Of a DNA stretch of 64,000 nucleotides, positions 344 to 47,696 are shown one piece after another (positions within the stretch are counted from its first letter, which is position 1; each line of letters opens with the position of its first letter). The position numbers and the translations under genes were made by a program. The notes below the pieces were generated by a model that saw only the letters and a list, made by a program, of their open reading frames with translations, was not told the DNA's origin and made no database searches. The stretch lies in the NCBI GenBank assembly GCA_965645245.1, contig OZ287080.1, forward strand, positions 1,488,001-1,552,000. Reading direction: 5' to 3'. Source of the DNA: Massalongia carnosa (taxonomy: Eukaryota).

Positions 344-1438
344 ATGGCTGAGACTTCCAAGCTGGTTTTCTGGGGACGGTTCCTCGCTCTGCGATATTGG
401 TCTTTGTCAAAGATTCTAGGTCCTAAGTGGGCAGCCTGTACAAGATTTTGGCTTGTAAAGACCCTCGCATCAGGGTATACTGCAGAAAGGTTTGTTGACC
501 TACACAAGCAATTTGATAAGTTTCGTCGGTTGATTATCGACCTAGCTTATCTTTTTTGTAGGCTCATTGGTTCGCATCGGGCTAAACTACCATTTAACCA
601 ATGATCCTGACCTAGCCCATAGGATCCTGGCCACCGGATCCCGATATACAAGAGCACCGTGGTTTGAAGCCCTTAAAATCGATCCTCAGGCTCCAAATAT
701 AGTCTCCGAAAGGGACCCAAAGAAGCACAATAGCTTACGGCATACTTTATCTACTGGGGTTAGAGGCCTGCATCAATGGAGTCTGAAGTACCCTACTAAC
801 CTATTTCACAGTACGGCAGCAAGGCTCTCCAAGGTATAGAGCATGTCATCGACGAGCGTTTGTTAGACTGGTTGGCGCGAATAGACGAGGTGTGGGTATC
901 GCAACCCAAAATCTCGAAGGTATTCGACATAGGGAGAAGGATACAGTTTCTTACAGTAGATATCATCACCCAGCTATGCCTTGGAGAAGCTTTCAGATGC
1001 GTCGAAAGCGATAGTAATCAGCATAACTTTCTGGAGACGATTTGAACCGGAATGGCACTTAGCCTCCAGTTGTCAGTCTTGCACGAATTCACAGATATAT
1101 TATTCAATCTGACCAAGATCTCATTCATGCACCGCCTGTTAGTGCCCACAGCAAAGGATAAGACAAGTGTTGGCAAAATCATGGCGGTATGTTCTCCAAA
1201 CATGACAACTATGCGCCTGACCGCTCATACGAGTGTCATTAGATCGTTCATTGAGCCGTGGATCAGCGGTTTGAACTAGACGCTGTTCCGAGAAAAAACA
1301 TGCTAGACTCTTTCCTTGAGCGGGGCGTTGCAAGAAACCAGGCAGATGCGGAACTTATTATCTCCCTATAAGCTATTACCCTCAACTTTAGAGGCCTAGC
1401 GATTCGATTCGACTCATGCTCATGAATATGCAGCATTA
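344..1438 (+). pseudogene. Cytochrome P450 pseudogene, N-terminal half only
   Basis: Spliced reading gives P450-like segments (GSLVRIG.N, NIVSERDPKKH..LR, IQFLTVDIITQLCLGEAF, MLDSFLERG...AELIISL). In-frame TGA at 1043 and 1252; two intron donors read ATAAG (516, 1368). Ends at a TA where a transposon begins; no heme-binding C-terminal motif seen. Confidence 0.8.
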
Positions 1439-8041: not shown

Positions 8042-11000
8042 TCATATGTAGAACATCGTATCCTTAAGCTTATCGTGAATCTGAACCATGCGCACCTGGT
8101 CGACCAACTCCCCTGACCGTCCACTCGTCAAGCTCGCGGACGGCGTTGGGCCTGGGCTTGCGTCGAAGACACCACTCAGGTAGCATCTCGCCCTCTCACA
8201 TACCAAATCAGCATAATATGCTGGTGGGCAGACACTGACAGCTTTCGTCGCTCGCCCATACATATAGCACATGTTGTGAGTCAAATCTTCAAGCACATCA
8301 GCAGCATGCTGAAACGGAGGGTCGATACGCTGTTTGCTGAAGATGTCGTCGTGCACAACAAAGTAATGCGCTGGTCGAGCGGTGCCTTGAAGAGCGGTAT
8401 GAGCTTGGAGGAAAAAGTCCCAATTTCGAGGCTCGGTAATACCGCGATCGACTACGGTACCGTTCTTGGGATTAGACGAACGCTCGTCAATCGTATTTGG
8501 TGCCAAGCTTGTGGGATAGAACCTAGTATGATGGCGCTTGCCGACCACGATGATGGCCAGTTTGGGCAACCCTTTTTTTGTATCTGTCGCCGGATACATC
8601 ATGGCGCAAGTTTTTTGAAGCAGCGGTAACTCTTCGTCAAGCACTTTTGCGTACTGCCCTTCTGATACACCGTCCCGGTAGACGATTATGTTTTCTGGTA
8701 GGACCTGCTTGTTATGGGCCCTCCAAAGATGGAGACGGGATATGAGCATTTCACCAAGCTCACTCACCATCTCCTTTCGCGCTTCTTGAATTCGAAGCGT
8801 GGCTGGCCATTGTCCTAGCCATTTGTCGTAACTCGCAACCATACCAGCAACGCTAGGAGCATCGGAGGATGAGCCAGGAGAAGGATGAGTCACATCAATT
8901 CCAACTACCATCGTCTTGCCCTGACTTACAATACCCAACTTGCTAGGATCAAGAGATTGATTGGTACCGCCCTTTTTCAAATTAAACTTCAGCGCAACAT
9001 TCGCAAAGTACTGTAAATCAAACCTCTGGCCACCTTGGAGCTTTGCGAACTTGTCTCCAACAACGCAAATGGTATGTAGACCGTATACAACGTCTCCATA
9101 GTATTTGACGCGATTATAGATTTTGATGTCATTCTTTGGCAAGAGGACAAGTATTAGCTCAGGTTTCGATGGATGAACAAGTAAGCGTTTGAAGATATTG
9201 TTGAGAACCTCATCCCACTCTTCATCTTTCAGCTCGATATTGGGCCCTGGGAGAGTCGGTATATTGGCATTGACCCCATTGGCAATCAGCGCTTGATGGA
9301 ACGCCACGAGAGTATTCTTTAAAAAGTCGGCATCGTTGTTCCAAGCATCTCTATAACCTGGAATTGAGATCCGTAGCGTCGTCCACGATCTCAAAGAGGC
9401 CCCAGTTGTAAACTTGATATTTTCCATGTTCCATGAGCCATACCTAGTCGATGCTGTAGCATTCTGTCTATATCTAACACTCGGTCCGGTTAAAATGCGT
9501 CCTGGAACCGTCACCATCTTCTGGCCTACCGAAATCCCAAAAGTGGCCTGAATCTGTCAGTGCATCCCATCGAGTACTTCAGGTTACTTACTAGTGTGGG
9601 GTTTGGTGGTACAAGCCCCAAAGTTACGCAGCCAGAATCCACAATCGATCGCGCATTTTCATATGGCTTACGTACGGCAAAACGAATCATCTGCTGAGTT
9701 TGGTTGGGGCTAAGCTTCGAGTCTGCGAGCTGACCTGGTAATATGACACAAACATCTACAGGTAGATACATCGGATTCTGTTTGTTGCCAGTGTTGACGA
9801 CAGGGACGTCTGTCTTGAGTTGTCTGTTGTAATCTGCGCCGAAAATTAGTACGAACCAGTCTGGGGCGGCCGGAACTCACTTCTCCTAAAGAAATCGAAG
9901 ACGCTGATGTACTTAGCCCCTGTACTTAAACCAGCCGATTCTTTACCTTGGGCACCCTTTAAGGTCGCCCCCTTTCCTCCCTTCTTGCTAGGGGTGGGTG
10001 TATCTCTAGAACTTGCCGATTCGTCCCACCAAAATTGAACGTCCTTTGCATTTGCGCCGAAGTTTCGCACTATTGGTGGGTGCGCGAGTCCTTGGCCATC
10101 ACTCTTAGTGGCAAGACCGGTAATGGTTTTTGCGCGTTGAATCTTCACGCCTGCTCTATTTATCTTGTCAGGCATATGATTTGTTTCGATCCGAAGCTTC
10201 TTCAAAATCTTTTCAAGTTGGTATAGGTTGCTACCGTTTGCTGCCTGGTGTTTTCCAATCCAAATTCCTAATGGTATCGCTTCGAATGTAGCGACATGTT
10301 TGACCTGCACATTAAGTAACAAGCGAGCAGCAGCAGCTCGTACACTGACGAAGTAGCCTCTCCAGGCCTGGAGCCCGGCACCAAGATCAAAGCTTTGAGC
10401 GGATGCTCCACGTAGAGCAAAGTGCTTATTTGCTCCCACTGAGAAAGTGTTTGCAGATGATTTTGGGTGGTAACCAAGGATTATGTTGAGAGCTTGTATA
10501 ATATCTGCTTTGGCGGCGAATGCACTGCTCGCGTTTGTTGAGGTAAGGTAATCGATCAATTCGGATACTGTGAAGCGCCCATTCTCTTCCAGTCGAATCT
10601 TGTAGGTCTGTGCAGTTGGAGTAGGCTCATCTTCACCTTCGGATTTGTAGACAATAGATTCTTCCAAGTGCTCAGGATGAAGACCTCGATTACTAATTAA
10701 TGTGGATTTATAGTCAGAGACAATGTCTCTTCCGAGAGCAGAGATTCGCCCTTCAGTAAGTAGCTGTTGAACAATCCGTTGCCGTTTCTTACCAGCCGCC
10801 TCTGGCTGCATGTCGATACTATAGCGATAGAGCCGAAGATCGCCCTTCGGAACGAGTTGAAAATAGTTAGTCCATAAGGTCAACGGTGTACCTCTAGTCC
10901 CATATCCAGGTCGACGTGGGAGTTTTTGATCGAGACTCAGTTGTGAGAGATCGGGCAGATTTGACTTTCCATCTTTGGAAGATTTCAACGTGTCATCCTC

Positions 11001-11258
11001 GATCTTCGTGATTTTACTCTCTGGAACTGGGACAAGTTCATCTTGGTAACTAAATCCGTACGTTAGAACCAGTGGAGTCAGCTAGTTCATGTAATATAGG
11101 GAAGCTCACGCGAAAACTTCAGCAATAGTTCTACCACCCCGTCCACCGCCCCTCCCTCCCATAGGTGCACCGCCGCCGTGACCACGACCTCTGCCTCCAT
11201 CACCTCGCCCACCTCTTTCACCGAAAGAGCCACCGCGACCTCGGCCGCGTCCTGACAT
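8042..11258 (-). CDS. qde-2: Argonaute, QDE-2-like. Exons 11258-11110, 11049-9881, 9833-9592, 9547-8042; 1021 aa
   Basis: Three GT-AG introns (60, 47, 44 nt) give a continuous 3066-nt frame. RGG-rich N-terminus; RPGYGTRG..LWTNYF; PIWI motifs GIDVTHP, YRDGVSEGQ, GKRHHTRF, GTARPAHY, PPAYYADLVC, TMFYI. Confidence 0.93.
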
Positions 11259-29166: not shown

Positions 29167-29254
29167 AGCCGAATGCGGGAGTCGAACCCGCAACCTTGTG
29201 GTTTTTGATCCTGAAGGTAAGAGCCACACGCTCTGCCGATTGAGCTAACCCGGC
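29167..29254 (-). tRNA. tRNA-Lys(CTT) with a canonical ~15-nt intron after position 37
   Basis: GCCGGGTTAGCTCAATCGGCAGAGC; anticodon stem TGTGG/CCACA with loop CT-CTT-A plus insert; GGTTCGACTCC T-loop; downstream T-run. Confidence 0.95.
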
Positions 29255-36255: not shown

Positions 36256-37587
36256 CAAGGTTGGGTGACATTGGTCCGTGCCCCCCCTAAATTTCGAAAA
36301 ACTGCCCCTTCTACCACCATTTTACATTGATCATTCGTCAATCACATGGCTATTACACGCAGTTTTCGAAGTCCCCGTAAACGAGGTGGCTATCATGGTT
36401 TAGAATGGGGTACGCCCATTAAAAATCAATGCTACGGTCGCATGGACGCAGGGCAATCACTGCATAGAATTCATGCCGTCACAGGGGTGCATCGGGACAC
36501 TCTTCGTAAATGGCGAAAACAGCGCGATATTGGAAACACAGTCAGAAGAAAAGGTGCTGAACGGGCTGGAAAAGCACGAAAAGTCTCCGATTGGGAAATC
36601 AAAAAGGTGCTCAATTGGGTGCTAAAGGAGAAATACTCTGGAAGACGTATGTCATTTGCTCAGTTATGCAAACGTCATAATTTACCAATTCATCCTCGAA
36701 CTCTCGCACGACGTTTAGCTCAATTGGGCTATCGCAAATGCACTGCATGCCCGAAACCTTTCATCAATGAAAAGAATCGAAAAATTCGACTCGCTTTCTC
36801 TGTAAAGCTCGAGAACTGGACGCATGCCTGGAAACGACTTCGATTCAGTGATGAGAGCACGTTTTACACGGGCAAACATAAAAAGAATCAAATTCTTCGC
36901 AAGGCGGATGAAAGATACTGTCTTGATTGCATTCAGACTCGTTTTCGGAGTGGTAGAACGTCGTTTTCAGTATGGGGAATGGTGGGGTGGGGGTATAAAT
37001 CAAAACTGGTGTTTTTGCAGAATCTCTCCGGGGCCAGGGGGGGAATGACCAAAGAAGACTATATAAAACAGGTGCTACTACCTGTCGTTTCTCCGTACTT
37101 TCAGGAGAGCAATTATATTTCTCCTTATGAACGTACGGAGCATTCCCTTCATGCCCGAGAGTTCGGTGAAATTCTCTTTCAGGAGGACGGAAATCGAGCC
37201 CATGATTTGGGGTTTGGAAAGCGAAATCTTTCACAACTGAAAGACTCATTCAAAATTCCTTTGTTAAATGATGGAGCATGGCCTCCATGCTCACCAGATC
37301 TCAACATAATCGAGAATGTTTGGAGGATAATCAAGCAACGAATCGGAAGTTATGACATGGTTATCACTACTCTGGATGACATGAAGAAGGCCGTTCAGCA
37401 CGAATGGAACGAGGTAAAACAAGAGGAAATTGACAATTTGGTAGCTACAATGCCTTCTCGTATAAAGCAATGTAAAGATAGAGAAGGTAACGCAACAAAA
37501 TGGTAGAAATGAAGATGTTTTGTTGTTGTTTTGTGACTGTTTTTCGAAATTTAGGGGGGGGGCACGGACCAATGTCACCCAACCTTG
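36256..37587 (+). mobile_element. Tc1-like transposon with an intact ORF and 47/49-bp TIRs
   Basis: TA|CAAGGTTGGGTGACATTGGTCCGTGC7TAAATTTCGAAAAAC at 36256-36302, inverted at 37539-37587 (differs only in homopolymer length). Confidence 0.96.
36346..37506 (+). CDS. Tc1-like transposase, 386 aa, DD41E spacing
   Basis: HTH-like N-terminus; RFSDES, VWGMVG, FQEDGNRAH, WPPCSPDLNIIENVW, MPSRIKQC..REGNATKW; no stops. Confidence 0.95.
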   Translation: MAITRSFRSPRKRGGYHGLEWGTPIKNQCYGRMDAGQSLHRIHAVTGVHRDTLRKWRKQRDIGNTVRRKGAERAGKARKVSDWEIKKVLNWVLKEKYSGRRMSFAQLCKRHNLPIHPRTLARRLAQLGYRKCTACPKPFINEKNRKIRLAFSVKLENWTHAWKRLRFSDESTFYTGKHKKNQILRKADERYCLDCIQTRFRSGRTSFSVWGMVGWGYKSKLVFLQNLSGARGGMTKEDYIKQVLLPVVSPYFQESNYISPYERTEHSLHAREFGEILFQEDGNRAHDLGFGKRNLSQLKDSFKIPLLNDGAWPPCSPDLNIIENVWRIIKQRIGSYDMVITTLDDMKKAVQHEWNEVKQEEIDNLVATMPSRIKQCKDREGNATKW

Positions 37588-38157: not shown

Positions 38158-40120
38158 TCAACTCCCCCACTCCATCCCTTCGCCTTCCCCTCCGCTCTCC
38201 CTCTCTCGCTCCTTCCCCTCCTCCCCTTCGCCTTCCCCGTCTTCTTCCTCCAAAGCCTCAAAGGCCATCATCTTCTCCCCCTTCACCTCCACCCCCTCCT
38301 CCACCACAAAACCTCCCTGCACCTCAACATCCCTTAACACGGCGCCCTTTCCCACTCTTACCCGCCTACCCACTACGCATCCGCTCAGCACACACCGTTC
38401 GCCCACTTCCACCTCGTCCATCAGCACACAGCGCGCCAGCTTCGCGCCTGCGCCCACGCGACACCCGGCGCCGATGACGCACTCTTTGATCGAGGCGTGG
38501 GTGGCGATGGTGGTGTTAGGACCGAGGAGGGTAGTGGGAGCGTGAACGGTGGTTTGGGGCGCGATGAGTGAGGGGGTGCTGATTTTCTGGGGGTGTGAGT
38601 GCGGGTTTGTGGCGGGGGGATAGGTGGCAAGGTGGAGGGAGGTGGTGAGAAGGAGGTATGGAGTGTCTACACGGAGGAGGAGCGGTTGTGGGCTTACGCC
38701 GGGGGGGGACGGGTGAATGTAGGCAAGCATGAGGGGGATAGGGGATGGGTTGGACCGCAGGCGTGAGGAGGAAGGAATGAGGGTGCTGGTACGAGTGGTG
38801 CTCATGCTAGCAAGGTCGATGTCGTCTTCAACCAAGCCGCTATGATGGCTGTTGCTATCGACGCCGTCCTTTTCTTCCGTAGTGGTGGGCGAGGCGGCGC
38901 CGTCAAAGATCTGGCGCAAGCCGAGCTTTTCTGCCAGCCCGTCCTGCCAGCTGGCTTTGGCCCAGCAACCCACTAGGTCCTCACCGATGCTGTCAAAGCG
39001 CTCGTTGCGTTTCACGAAGTCTAGCACCCAGTACGGGAAAACGTATACATGGGCGTCGCGGTGAGTGGTCAGCATCCGGATGCGACTATGTTTCCGGAGC
39101 AGCCCGTGCCGAATCGGAAAGCTTTTCTTCTCCTCGGTGATATCGCGCAGGGTGTCTTTAGTGGTGGCGTAGACGAGCTTGGAGATGTGCGGTCGTAGCG
39201 AGTTTTCCGGAGGGTGGGTGGTGGGAAGGGGAAGCGGAGCGGTGATGAGGAAGTCGGTTTCGGTTCCTTTGACGCTGCTTTCCGCCTTCGTTTGATACCA
39301 AACGCCGAGGCCGCCGCGGCGTCCGCCTTTTTCGCCGCTCAGGCTCATTTTTGGGCCCATATAGTCGAAGGAGTTAGCGGCGGCACCACCGAAACCGGAT
39401 TCTTGAACCATCCATGCTTCCAGCAATGATTCGCCGGGAAGCTCGCAGATGAGGTCGCATGGTAGAATCAGGAAATCGCCGGTAATGGCGGCTTGCACGT
39501 TGGGGTGACGGAGGATTTCAGCGGTTCCCGAGTTTTGTGTTATGCTCTCTGGGGCGAGGATATCGGCTTTGGGAAGGGGGAGAGATGTAAGGTGGGGATT
39601 CTGTGATAAGGCGGCTTCAATCGCTTTCGATGATGAGGGCGGAGTGATGAGATGAATATCTTTCCCATATTGTGGTCAGATTTATTTGTCCGTCTCCATT
39701 GAGATCATAACGAGCTAACAACCCTAGATTCAGGAACAAAGCAGCATTCTGATAGGGACCAAATGGAGAGAGAAATGAGACGCTTTTTCGCCAAGACAGT
39801 ATGAGCAACGTTGAAGGGTTTCCTCCCCTAACGCTCGATTAAGTTAAGAAAATCGATAGCACCCAATACAACTTCTGAGCAAACGAAAAACTTAAGTTTT
39901 CAAATATCGATGATGAGTTAGGAGATTGATGGTACACACTAGTAATGCCCATTCGATAGCACCAATCCAGAGGATACCATACCATGGGCCGGTTTGCAAT
40001 CGGAAGCAATGCTTTCGGAAAGTCTTGGGGGTGGGAAGTGAAGGTGGTTAAGGAAAGGCCAGGGCCACATAGAATGAGGGCTTGAAAGCCTGGCGATGGC
40101 ACCGCCAGGGCATGAGGCAT
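38158..40120 (-). CDS. GCD1: Translation initiation factor eIF2B gamma subunit; intron 39660-39939
   Basis: FQALILCGPG, PKALLPIANRPMVWYPL, GTAEILR, DFLILPCDL, C-terminal left-handed beta-helix hexapeptide repeats. Confidence 0.93.
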
Positions 40121-42486: not shown

Positions 42487-45400
42487 ATGGCGACCGCTCT
42501 GGCTACAAAGCCCGCCCCGCCCCACCAGAAGATGAAGCGCCCACCACCTCCAGTACAGACTGCCCTCAATGGAGTCAGATCCTCTCACTCTTCTCCTTCA
42601 CCTTCTCTCAGCTCAAAAAGACCGCCACCTGGTTTTAAACAACCTCCAAGCGCCTTGGTGGTCAATGGGGTTAATGGCAATATAAATGGAGGTGGGCAAC
42701 GCTCGAGCAATCGGAGAAGGGATTCACAAAAGCTGGGGGACTCTTCAGGCCGCCTAGCTAGGCCGGGCAAGACTGGGCAAGGTGAAGGGACTCTTGATCG
42801 GAGGCTTCAGAAAAGAAAGCCTGAACCATATGGTACGTATACGCTTTCAGCAATCTGCTGGATAGGAACAGCTACTAAACGGAATGTGTGAAGTCAAAAC
42901 TCCCGGGTATATTCTGAAGAAGTACCAAAGTTCTCCTCCTTCCCTGATCATTCATTTACACCCCACTCATTTTCGATTCGATCAACAAGACGGCAGTTTT
43001 TCGTATAATTCCTCTATGAAGGTTATATTGGAACATATTAAATCATCAACGGTCCCCCATGATATGATGGAGGACTTTGCAGCCGCTAAAATAAGATTTT
43101 ATGAAGGTAAGCGGTAATCCGTCCAGTTCCTCATCTACACATGCTTATTCTCTTCACTAGGATGTCTGATTGTACAGATTCACGACCACAAAAGTATTTC
43201 GTCAACTTCTTCGGCATCTACGAGCAACGCAACAGCTGACAATCACGTACCTTTCTCAATACACAACTACAACGAACACTTAACGCCCTCTCCCTATGTG
43301 CCATACCCGAAGTCCACAAATACCAACGCCGGCGGCAAGGATGCCAGAAGTGGGCCTACCGGGGGAGGGAGTTCGAGCAATGAAGCGCCGAAACCAACGG
43401 GCCAAGCAAAGGCATCCAAAGACAGCTCAGCTTCCAAGGGTCCCAGGATTTTTACTACGGTCCTATTCCCAACGCCACGTTCATTACACGAGGAAGTCAT
43501 TGCCTATGCCAATATGATAGATCCTCGTCCAAGCAATCGCAAACAATCGCAAGCTAGTATCAGTCGGACGCCCGCCTCAGCAACTCTACCCCATCCCCCA
43601 ACGCCGTCCTCTACGATCCCTCCAACACCTTCCGCTACGGGACCACCCGCAAAAAGGCAAAAGATGCTCATCAATGAAAAGGATCTTCTTGAATTTGAAA
43701 GCAAAACTATCATGGCTACCACTTCTCCGCTCTTCCTAGAGCCTGCGACGGACTATCATCATGCTACAATAATCCTCGAAAAACTTACCGATACGCTCCA
43801 CCAACACAACCCTCCTCCTCCCAAGACGCGGAAGAGAACTGTTGCTGAATTAGCTGCCGACGAGGCGCTTGCCGCTCAAGAGCAACGCTTCATGCTCATT
43901 ATGGACGAAAGACTAGGTCCTTCAGCATCTGCTAACTCGACCGGAAAAACTGGCTCAGCTGATGGTGAGGCGGGTGCTGTATTATTTGAGCCGAGCTTTG
44001 AAAAGTTCAAGACAATTGCGGGAATTAAGTTAGCGCTCCAAGAGAAAGCGCAACGAGAACAAGAAGCCAAAGCCCAATTACAAGCTTTGGCAACCGCTAA
44101 CAAAGTCAAAGCCGAACGACACGAACAAGAAATGCAGAGGCAAGCTCAAGAACAAAAGTTGGTCGACAACGCCAGGAGGGAGCAAGAAATGCGTAGAATA
44201 CAAGCTGTTCAAATTCAGGCCCAGCAGCAGCAGGCGGTCCAGAAGGCGGCTCAACAGGCCCAACAGGCGGCTCAGCAGGCTCAGGCCCAGGTCCAGGCCC
44301 AGGCACAAGCTCAACAGGCTCAACAGGCTCAACAGACTCCACAGACGCAACAGACTCAACAGGCTCAACAGACTCAACAGGCTCAACAGACTCAACAGAC
44401 TCAACAGACTCAACAGACTCAACAGACTCAACAGGCTCAACAGACTCAACAGGCTCAACAGACTCAACAAGCTCAACACGCTCAACAGACTCAACACGCT
44501 CAACAGACTCAACAGGCGCAAGTACAAGCAGCTCAAAACCAACCAAATCTAGCAGCGTTGCAGCAACAGCAACAGCAGCTAGCAGCGAGTCAGACCCATC
44601 CCCATCATGCATCCCCTACCAATGGAAACGTTCAAAATATACCGCAAAATATGTTACCTATTTCACAGGCACATCAGCAATCTCCCGTTGTCCGCAACAT
44701 GACGCCACATAGCACATCTTCCCCTGTTATTGGCACTCCAAGGGTCAGCCATCCTAATCAAAGTGTTTCCATGAATATAACCTCATCCAACCAAGGGAAT
44801 GCTAGCAGTCCCGCACGTCCATCTTCTGCACTTCAGCATGGCCATCCCAATGGTGGGGTTCCAATGATCCATCAGCGAAGCCAGCAACCGCCGAGTCGCC
44901 TGGGAACACCTCAAGTGACCAATGGTACGCCAAACTTACAACAAGCTACGCCAGCGATGAACCACTCTACACCAACCTCACGCATGGGCCACGCAAGTCC
45001 ACCGAACGTGTTGCAAACCCCTGTCATGGGTCAAAGTCAAATGGTGGCACATCCTTTCACTGGGCAACCATTAACGCCACAGCAGCAGCAACAAATACTC
45101 CAACAGCGGGCTTATCATCACCAGCAACAGTTACTGATGCATCAGCAACAGCAACAGCAGCAATTGCAATTGCAAAACTCATCTCCTAACCCGCAAATGT
45201 CTCCTGACCGCTCCCAAATGTCTACCCCAACCCTTCAGCAAATGGTGACCTCCCAAAACCAACAGCGAGAACTCTACAATGCACAGCTTCGAAATCACCA
45301 CCAACAAATGAACGGCCACACCGTCAACGGCGTCTCGCCTCAGCAGCAGCAACAAAACTCGCAAGCACACCTCCACCAGCAAAACCATCCACAACAAGTT

Positions 45401-45745
45401 CATCCGCAGCAGCAGCAGCAGCAGCGATATTCCATTAACGCAGGCAACCAGCAAGTGCTTCAGACCATGCAGCAGAAGTTCTTCACCGGGCTCATGAACC
45501 AATTACAGCAGCAGTTTCACGGGGGGCAGATTCCGGAGCAGCACGTCCAGGCCGCGAAGGATCAAGCGGCCATTAGGACGCAGAACTGGTTTAGCAACCA
45601 GCGGAGTCAGGCTCTGCAAAGGCAGCAGGCGAGTCAGGCGCAAGTGCAGGCCCGGCAACTGCATCAACAGCAGCAGCAACAAATGATGGCGCAAATGGGC
45701 CATGTGCCCAATGGGGGGATGAATGGCATGGGGGCCATGCAGTGA
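42487..45745 (+). CDS. SPT20: SAGA complex subunit Spt20; introns 42833-42893 and 43107-43160
   Basis: PPSLIIHLHPTHFRFDQQDGSFSY, TVPHDMME, FYEGCLIVQIHDH, PFSIHNYNEHLTPSP, TVLFPT; Q-rich C-terminus. Confidence 0.9.
44248..44516 (+). repeat. Coding 9-bp minisatellite (RCTCAACAG)n encoding (A/T)QQ
   Basis: Directly visible inside SPT20. Confidence 0.9.
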
Positions 45746-47569
45746 TTTTTCGAGACGGTGCGGTGGGGTTTGGGGCATGTTTTCTTTAGATTTACGGGAG
45801 GTAGAAAAGGATGAAGGGTGTAAATGATGAGAATTGTCAACGACAAGAAATCGATATCTATGAATCAGAGGCGGTATACCAGGTTCCGGGGTGGGGGATT
45901 GGTTTGGGGGGACTACAGGGTTTTCAGGACTGGGTGCCATTTTTTATTTATTTTCCCCCCAAACGAGCGGAGGCGCACAGGTGCACAGTACGGGAAGAGC
46001 ATCAATGATTGCTATCATTTTCATGATTTTAATTTAACTTTCCACCAGTTTTATTGTGCACCCCAAGCTTTTTCCAACATTGCAAGTCCACGGGGTTTCA
46101 CAGTGGTTACGATCGACATCTTACGTTTTATCTCTTCTTTTCTCTCTCGCTTTCCTATTCCCGCCGCCAACCTATTCCTTCCTTCCTTCCTATCTGGACA
46201 AGAAGAGAAGGGGTGGGGGTTGGTGTTGTAATTAATTTCGGTAGCCTTGACTTTACTAGTCAATCCGATCCAAATGTTCTCTTATAACTACCTACCTGAT
46301 AGGTTCCTGATATATTGGTGGATATTGGCACTCTCCCAAACGATGCTTGCTTGCTCTTGAGGCGGCGGGGGGGGGGCGTTGCTGATCTCTAGATTTTCTT
46401 ATTTTCTTTCAGAAGAAATTTTCATTCCTCTCTTCTTTCCCCCAATCCCCCGCTTCCGCCCTTGTCTGCCTATCTCTTTCATATTCTTCGTTCATTCCTT
46501 GGTTCGTTCGTTCGTTTCCCTCTCCTTCCCTCCCCTCCCCAACTCTAACCCTCAGCACTTGACATCCCCTTCCTCTTGGCCAAATTCGCCCTTAACGGAA
46601 ACCGTGTTGAGATTGAAATTAGGATTGAAGGTGGTATTATCATTGAAAAAGTTTGTAAGGAGGAATGTGGGAGAGGAATGTGGGAGAGGTAGAGAGAGAG
46701 AGAGAGGAAAGGCTGGGTTAGGGTGGGTAGATAAGTAAGTATTCGTTATGACGAGTTTTTAATGTGGGTTATCTCTTTTTCTTTGTTGTGGGAGGAGGGG
46801 GGTGGATGGAGTGCGAGAAAGAAAAGGGGGGGGAAGGAGGGGTCTGGATTGAGCTTGTCAGAGCGGGGATCGGGGAGGTTTGAAAGAAGGGGGAAAAACA
46901 AACAAACCAAACAGACGGGATTAATTGGAAAGGGAAAAAGCAGACGAGGGCAGGAGAAAATCATATGTTGGTTGTAGGGCGGAGAGTTCGGTTTGATTTA
47001 CATGCTCTCATGCTCATCATTGCAAGGGCGATTTCTGCATCATCCTGAACCGCAATTCCTCCCTCTCTGCGAATCTCGCTGTTTCATGATTCGGTTCGGC
47101 GTGTCTTAGGAAGTAAAGCTTAAGTAGTTAGAGGTTGGCAACCAACTCTTTGTTTATTTGCCTTCTATCCTGATAGGAAAAGGCATGTATAAGGAAATGA
47201 AGGGGTGAAGAAGACTGTTTGTTGTTTGTTCCTTTTCTTGGACGGTTTACTTCTAGGGAACATATTTGGTATATCTGGATGAACGGACGCAATAATCTAT
47301 TGATATGTAGATAGATGTACTATATAGCATTGATACTTTATGAGTAGAATAAAACTACTTAGACGTTCGCGACTTGAAGAATCTAAAAGGTGCACGGGGA
47401 ATATATCTTGTTGAGAAGTGGTGCATGGGCCAATCTCAACACTCCAAAAAAAAACTTATCCAGTCAACACCAATGCTAGTTAACCATTACGGCATAAACT
47501 CTAAGAATGCGCTCCTCGACGCTATACCCATCTCCAGAACCTTCCCCCCCGAAAAAAAACCAAAAAAAA

Positions 47570-47594
47570 TGCGACTAATGTGGATCGAACACAT

Positions 47595-47625
<31 letters not shown>

Positions 47626-47696
47626 TGCAATCGTTATTAGTCATGATTTACTGATTTTGAATGGTGGAGGATTCTTACCAACTGAGCTATACTCGC
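47570..47696 (-). tRNA. tRNA-Phe(GAA) interrupted in the D-loop by a 54-nt spliceosomal-type intron (47625-47678)
   Basis: Exons GCGAGTATAGCTCAGTTG + GGAGAGCGTCAGACTGAAGATCTGAAGGTCATGTGTTCGATCCACATTAGTCGCA form a 73-nt cloverleaf, followed by a T8 terminator. Confidence 0.93.

Follow-up and report, generated by a model that had tools for sequence, protein, structure and literature searches.

A GT-AG insert with the signals of a spliceosomal intron in the D-loop of a fungal tRNA-Phe(GAA) gene

The split tRNA-Phe locus and its surroundings

The window analysed here, i.e. the whole stretch of 64,000 nucleotides of contig OZ287080.1, carries on its minus strand a tRNA-Phe gene whose D-loop is interrupted by 54 nt. 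Proteins encoded in the window include a Piwi protein, a protein with an Spt20 SEP domain, a PPR protein, an eIF2B-type subunit and a Tc1-like DDE transposase. The transposase, of the Tc1/mariner type, is contained in a single open frame of 386 aa (36346-37506, plus strand) with HTH_Tnp_Tc3_2 and DDE_3 domains, and the Spt20-like ORF (43118-45745, plus strand) is characterised by very long glutamine-rich and QAQQTQQ-type repeats. The best matches of the eIF2B-gamma ORF were unnamed proteins with 76% identity, and the named matches with 54-61% identity came from Alectoria, Lecanora, Schaereria, Icmadophila, Trapelia, Xylographa and Lasallia, all of which are lichen-forming; the first named non-lichen fungus, Coleophoma, followed behind these with 51%. 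Since the best named matches of this ORF are lichen-forming fungi, we take the host to be a Lecanoromycetes-like ascomycete.

The tRNA-Phe gene sits in approximately 5 kb of DNA that holds no recognisable coding gene. Pfam domains were found in 0/10 of the neighbouring ORFs tested, and no gene model on the same strand encloses the gene. One other tRNA gene in the window, for tRNA-Lys(CTT), contains an intron at the usual place, and its acceptor stem includes two G-T pairs. The features relevant to the following are listed below.

47679..47696, minus strand: exon 1 of the tRNA-Phe gene, 18 nt, tRNA positions 1-18 (5' strand of the acceptor stem, 5' strand of the D-stem, and the D-loop up to G18)
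47625..47678, minus strand: insert of 54 nt, read as a U2-type GT-AG intron; starts with GTAAGAATCC and ends with GATTGCAG
47673..47678, minus strand: candidate 5' splice site GTAAGA, matching the GTAAGT form at 5/6 positions (+6 is A, not T)
47636..47640, minus strand: candidate branch-site motif CTAAT, with the presumed branch A at 47637 and 12 nt left to the end of the intron
47625..47627, minus strand: candidate 3' splice site CAG, the first AG downstream of the branch motif
47570..47624, minus strand: exon 2, 55 nt, tRNA positions 19-73, with the anticodon GAA at 47609-47607 and the discriminator A73 at 47570
47678..47689, minus strand: Pol III A box TAGCTCAGTTGG (DNA), the last G of which is the first base of the insert; judged by the consensus form
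47581..47591, minus strand: B box in the T arm, tRNA positions 52-62; read from the sequence and likewise judged by the consensus form
47552..47569, minus strand: two T8 runs (47569-47562 and 47559-47552) with GG between them, directly after A73; Pol III terminator-like
29167..29254, minus strand: tRNA-Lys(CTT) gene with a 15-nt intron beside the anticodon, detected with ARAGORN as well as with Rfam (56.1 bits)

The division of the minus strand into 18, 54 and 55 nt had been proposed, with its coordinates, in a first-pass annotation made from the letters alone, and it proved exact both in the sequence and in the ARAGORN check. When the insert was removed by script, ARAGORN called a 73-nt tRNA-Phe(GAA) with 20/21 stem pairs, which reproduces the cloverleaf described in that annotation: the D, anticodon and T stems are perfect, whereas the acceptor stem has 6/7 pairs, G5.G68 being the sole miss. 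The spliced product carries G18, G19, G20, the anticodon GAA, A73 and an intact T loop. It also contains all five of the Phe identity bases G20, G34, A35, A36 and A73, the set known from yeast. Three cut registers lead to an identical product, but it is only at 18/19 that the removed piece begins with GT and ends with AG. The A box, which the insert's first G keeps intact, the B box and the T8 run, all of them reported previously, were read at 47689-47678, 47591-47581 and 47569-47562, respectively.

On the uncut DNA, ARAGORN detected nothing at 47570-47696, and the tRNA-Lys gene was the only gene it called across the whole window. It was thus only after removal of the insert that the tRNA-Phe gene was called, in keeping with the earlier warning that tRNA finders could miss genes of this kind. 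With its intron option, ARAGORN forced a poor tRNA-Ala model onto the uncut locus. Rfam assigned the uncut locus 31.9 bits (cut-off 29), for positions 47570-47634 only, with the 3' end of the intron misused as acceptor strand and the D arm skipped.

A search by blastn-short within the window showed that the insert and its flanks match only themselves, other matches being at most 11 nt long. The ends of the insert carry no inverted repeats, and a single G is all that the two borders have in common. Contigs from sequencing runs X1-X3 (organism A) and X4 (organism B) were identical to the window and showed no joint, which has no bearing on splicing, X4 covering part of the stretch; the contigs from X2 and X3 each run unbroken through the insert, and in X1 the insert lies inside one contig that starts in exon 2. 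A transposon, a MITE or a dispersed repeat was therefore rejected within the window, as the insert is single-copy, lacks inverted ends and lies in unbroken contigs; of these, the dispersed repeat was the possibility singled out for checking in the first-pass annotation.

The contigs of run X1 break in exon 2, where a lone 31-mer (47595-47625) was found at a depth of 470, the flanking contigs having depths of 425 and 453. Any tRNA-Phe whose D arm and anticodon arm are the same would be expected to contain this 31-mer. Run X1 may include a little of another such tRNA-Phe gene, possibly another organism's, not at single-copy depth.

Splice signals of the insert and mRNA introns of the same window

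The insert interrupts the D-loop at 18/19, as opposed to the usual intron position 37/38, and it has GT-AG ends and no bulge-helix-bulge (BHB) motif. How often such signals arise by chance was estimated by placing 200,000 real 54-mers of the window at the insert site. GT-AG in any register was obtained for 1.2% of them, and the full signal set, defined as GT-AG together with a GTRNG or GTNNGT donor, a YTRAY motif 8-30 nt before the end and YAG, for 20 of the 200,000 (0.01%). The splice signals of the insert exceed chance. The U2-type donor, the CTAAT branch site and the CAG acceptor described from the letters alone are all present, as a combination seen in so small a number of the window 54-mers.

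The insert is composed of 22 A, 12 C, 7 G and 13 T, and its longest T run is 2. Because no T run exceeds 2, Pol III would not be expected to stop inside the insert, according to the usual termination rule. This avoidance of T runs fits with transcription by Pol III, though it is too weak for a test of it. In folding, the uncut precursor shows no advantage over shuffled sequences (z 0.19), a value that says nothing either way.

The mRNA introns that are best suited for comparison are those of the Argonaute gene (8045-11054, minus strand; Piwi domain, E 2e-76), in which two or more short introns are present, among them those at 9834-9880 and 9548-9591. The former is 47 nt long and reads GTGAGT..TACTAAT, 12 nt, ..CAG, the CTAAT motif and its spacing of 12 nt being the same as in the tRNA insert, and the latter is 44 nt long and reads GTAAGT..CTGAC, 9 nt, ..CAG. 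In tblastn searches with Argonaute homologues, 5/5 queries break at these two intron sites. The length of the insert (54 nt) agrees with that of these homology-supported introns. Since the ab initio intron scans were noisy, the comparison with mRNA introns rests on the two Argonaute introns; one scan gave 23 non-overlapping candidates, many candidates were antisense to ORFs, and the lengths of 47-86 nt obtained in this way are unverified. The range of 44-62 nt given in the first-pass annotation for the mRNA introns of the window is accordingly upheld for the values of 47 and 44 nt, the remaining lengths being derived from a noisy ab initio scan. The signals of the insert match those of the fungus's own mRNA introns.

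The eIF2B-gamma gene has approximately 280 nt between its first two homology blocks (39661-39939, minus strand). This gap may represent a single long intron, or a pair of introns flanking a small exon.

Split tRNA-Phe genes in metagenomes

Metagenomes were scanned with a pattern in which tRNA-Phe bases were fixed on both sides and 38-68 bases between them were left free, neither GT nor AG being required. The scan returned three loci, L001, L002 and L003. Two of them, L001 and L002, are further tRNA-Phe genes with GT..CTAAC or GT..TTAAC..YAG inserts. They lie on two contigs of one metagenome and are tRNA-Phe(GAA) genes of another organism. Their acceptor, anticodon and T stems differ from those of the window gene, and after removal of the inserts 21/21 pairs are formed in L001 and 20/21 in L002. 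The inserts are 50 nt long in both cases, and all signals pass only in register 19/20, one base beyond the 18/19 of the window gene. The insert of L001 reads GTTCGT..CTAAC, 10 nt, ..CAG, and that of L002 (gene at 367-489, minus strand) reads GTAAGA..TTAAC, 10 nt, ..TAG. T-runs are located downstream of both genes, and no convincing ORF was found in the flanks of either.

The interiors of the three inserts are unalike, as 552, 350 and 1244 out of 2000 interior shuffles reach the respective alignment scores, and homology of the interiors was rejected on these figures. What the inserts have in common is therefore where they lie, directly downstream of the A box, and which splice signals they carry, whereas their sequence is not shared. 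A shift of the register by one base that nevertheless keeps GT-AG would be hard to explain unless GT-AG matters. Splice signals that are retained while the interior differs, as anticipated in the first-pass annotation for related genomes, were indeed found in L001 and L002, which are other tRNA-Phe genes; what they show is recurrence of the split, not conservation in a known relative.

The window gene and L002 also share the G5.G68 mismatch and the first 10 bases of the insert (GTAAGAATCC), whereas the remainder of the insert and most stem pairs differ. These common oddities may be due to chance, or to common descent combined with a slide of the intron by one base.

The third locus, L003 (401-485, plus strand), served as an internal negative of the scan: its splice signals fail in every register and it has no T-run. 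It is a tRNA-Phe-like gene in which the apparent insert is made up of the tRNA's own middle part in degenerate form and, after it, the 5' part for a second time, i.e. a partial tandem duplication of the tRNA. At positions 650-790 of this contig, many weak matches to miRNA families were obtained on either strand; a long simple hairpin or a repeat may be behind them.

Among contigs of prokaryote genomes the insert pattern gave 0 matches, and the same flanks without an insert were found in at least 126 stretches, which are mostly archaeal tRNA-Phe genes according to the record titles. Nothing more follows from this contrast than the lack of such inserts in prokaryote genomes.

ARAGORN missed all three split tRNA-Phe genes (those of the window, L001 and L002), and only one of the three reached the Rfam cut-off, with a wrong 5' half. 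As a result, tRNA gene counts for such fungi may be too low, or split genes may have been filed as pseudogenes.

Interpretation and relation to known introns

The insert is probably a working spliceosomal intron in a tRNA-Phe(GAA) gene. This reading draws on the anatomy of the gene, the agreement of its signals with the introns of the same fungus, the lack of a BHB motif and the fact that other tRNA-Phe genes are split in a like manner, all of which are direct observations. From the sequence we infer that the gene is transcribed, which polymerase transcribes it, that the transcript is spliced and that the product is used. All predictions of the first-pass annotation that could be put to sequence came out in its favour, and we regard its interpretation, a Pol III tRNA matured by the spliceosome, as partly supported. 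Two observations speak against this reading, namely the G5.G68 mismatch in the acceptor stem, which is unusual in a working tRNA and which L002 has as well, and the A rather than T at position +6 of the donor.

If the insert is such an intron, TFIIIC would bind the A box (47689-47678) and the B box (47591-47581). The insert puts about 54 bp more between these two boxes, a spacing that tRNA genes of yeast can accommodate. Pol III would start from these internal elements, read through the insert and stop in the T8 run. On the precursor, U1 snRNP would pair at GTAAGA and U2 at CTAAT, and CAG would be recognised; the spliceosome would then remove the insert as a lariat and join G18 to G19, as with fission yeast pre-U6. 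The D-loop/T-loop contacts (G18, G19), the L-shape and the cloverleaf would form only after splicing, and processing of the ends by the usual enzymes as well as modification would presumably also follow it.

A more far-reaching proposal, whose chances we consider evenly balanced, is that in lichen-forming and other ascomycetes the spliceosome acts as a regular tRNA-maturation enzyme, that Pol III pre-tRNA-Phe is spliced by it, and that the product is a working tRNA, possibly the main tRNA-Phe. On this proposal, the GT-AG signals would lie directly behind the A box, and at no other place would an insert be compatible with the internal promoter. It would set a fourth combination beside the three nuclear intron types of the textbooks, with translation capacity tied to the activity of the spliceosome.

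The main rival, unlikely in our judgement and yet serious, is a tRNA-Phe copy that has died or is decaying, in which an intron-like piece that entered a redundant gene is not removed and no working tRNA is produced; the piece might for example be an mRNA intron that arrived through reverse splicing and reverse transcription. The acceptor-stem mismatch fits with such decay, as do the poor scores that standard finders give to the locus. Further tRNA-Phe genes may exist in the genome, and if uninterrupted ones are present elsewhere this copy may be dispensable. However, nothing in the tRNA other than the mismatch is damaged, the two boxes and the terminator are unimpaired, and a complete set of splice signals has been retained. 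Moreover, the inserts of L001 and L002 are different ones that nevertheless have the same signals, and the cloverleaves of both genes are intact, with every stem pair formed in one case, which would be unexpected from unrelated accidents in dead copies.

Two further alternatives accept a removable intron and differ in the polymerase or in the enzyme. In one of them the insert is a spliceosomal intron in a host or read-through precursor made by Pol II, from which RNase P and RNase Z release the spliced tRNA. Spliceosomal introns are normally found in Pol II transcripts (stated in passages of PMC12530127), and the 5 kb around the gene could hold a non-coding transcript. We nevertheless consider this improbable, as the elements required of a Pol III gene, two internal boxes (A and B) and a T8 run immediately behind A73, are in place, L001 and L002 likewise end in T-runs, the neighbouring ORFs tested lack Pfam domains and no same-strand gene model spans the gene; besides, the U6 RNA of Schizosaccharomyces pombe is a Pol III transcript that can be spliced (PMC5855946, in the part on U6). 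The other takes the insert to be a non-canonical tRNA intron with a BHB fold that the tRNA splicing endonuclease cleaves, as in Cyanidioschyzon merolae, nucleomorphs and archaea. D-loop introns of the BHB type do exist (described in passages of PMC3978253), and L001 can form a central helix of 4 bp and an outer helix of 4 bp, which 69/2000 shuffles do as well. The window gene and L002, on the other hand, form 2/4 central pairs, and 1748 and 1491 out of 2000 shuffles, respectively, reach the same; on these grounds the BHB reading of the window insert was rejected. The common features of the inserts, GT, branch motif and YAG, would be unnecessary in a BHB intron, and the tRNA-Lys(CTT) gene has an ordinary intron at the ordinary place, so the endonuclease introns of this fungus look normal. 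For the insert of the window, a BHB intron appears highly improbable.

Textbooks separate spliceosomal introns, which belong to Pol II transcripts, from tRNA introns, which are removed by the tRNA endonuclease. A tRNA that depends on the spliceosome, if real, would blur this division between spliceosomal and endonuclease introns. It would also place the most abundant Pol III product among the non-coding RNAs known to have introns of the mRNA type in their genes, and would be a second natural case, after U6, of the spliceosome acting on an uncapped Pol III transcript. The same separation is drawn in a paper from 2025, where, in the passages concerned, spliceosomal introns are assigned to Pol II transcripts and the endonuclease is named as the enzyme that acts on tRNA introns (PMC12530127). 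In full-text searches outside subscription journals we found no description of a spliceosomal intron in a tRNA gene, which agrees with the first-pass annotation, whose author knew of no described case. Introns of the mRNA type are already known from Pol III genes or genes for non-coding RNA, and it is the tRNA gene as host that would be new.

Introns of the mRNA type have been reviewed for the U6, U2, U5 and U1 snRNAs and for rRNA genes, tRNA not being listed in the passages concerned (PMC5855946). The closest known system is the intron that S. pombe and other fungi carry in their U6 snRNA gene (Tani and Ohshima 1989, 1991; Canzler et al. 2016, as cited in PMC5855946). Like the tRNA-Phe insert, the S. 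pombe intron is a short GT-AG intron with a branch site in a small, structured Pol III gene with internal control elements and a T-run (according to the same review, in its part on U6). The two differ in that splicing by the spliceosome is proven for U6, whereas the tRNA-Phe case is known from its DNA. They differ also with regard to origin, since U6 lies where the spliceosome has its active site, which is the usual explanation of U6 introns (reverse splicing), and a tRNA does not. Spliceosomal introns are known as well from the rDNA of lichen-forming ascomycetes (Bhattacharya et al. 2000, as cited in PMC5855946; PMC8527467). These belong to the same fungal group and are likewise mRNA-type introns in a gene for a stable non-coding RNA that is not transcribed by Pol II; however, rRNA is a Pol I product of several kb, whereas tRNA-Phe is a Pol III product of 73 nt with an internal promoter beside the intron.

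Among tRNA introns proper, the non-canonical BHB introns, which occur in the D-loop and at other positions in tRNA genes of C. merolae and Crenarchaeota, resemble the insert in that they too can interrupt the D-loop away from 37/38 and are missed by standard finders (PMC3978253, in the parts concerned). Unlike the insert, they are defined by their fold and cut by an endonuclease, whereas the insert of the window has GT, a branch motif and AG in place of a BHB. The ordinary Sen/TSEN intron at 37/38, represented in the window by that of the tRNA-Lys gene, shares with the insert the interruption of a nuclear tRNA gene and the need for removal before the tRNA can be used. It differs in being 15 nt long, in lying beside the anticodon and in leaving the gene detectable by tRNA finders, whereas the tRNA-Phe insert comprises 54 nt, lies at 18/19 and carries signals of the mRNA type.
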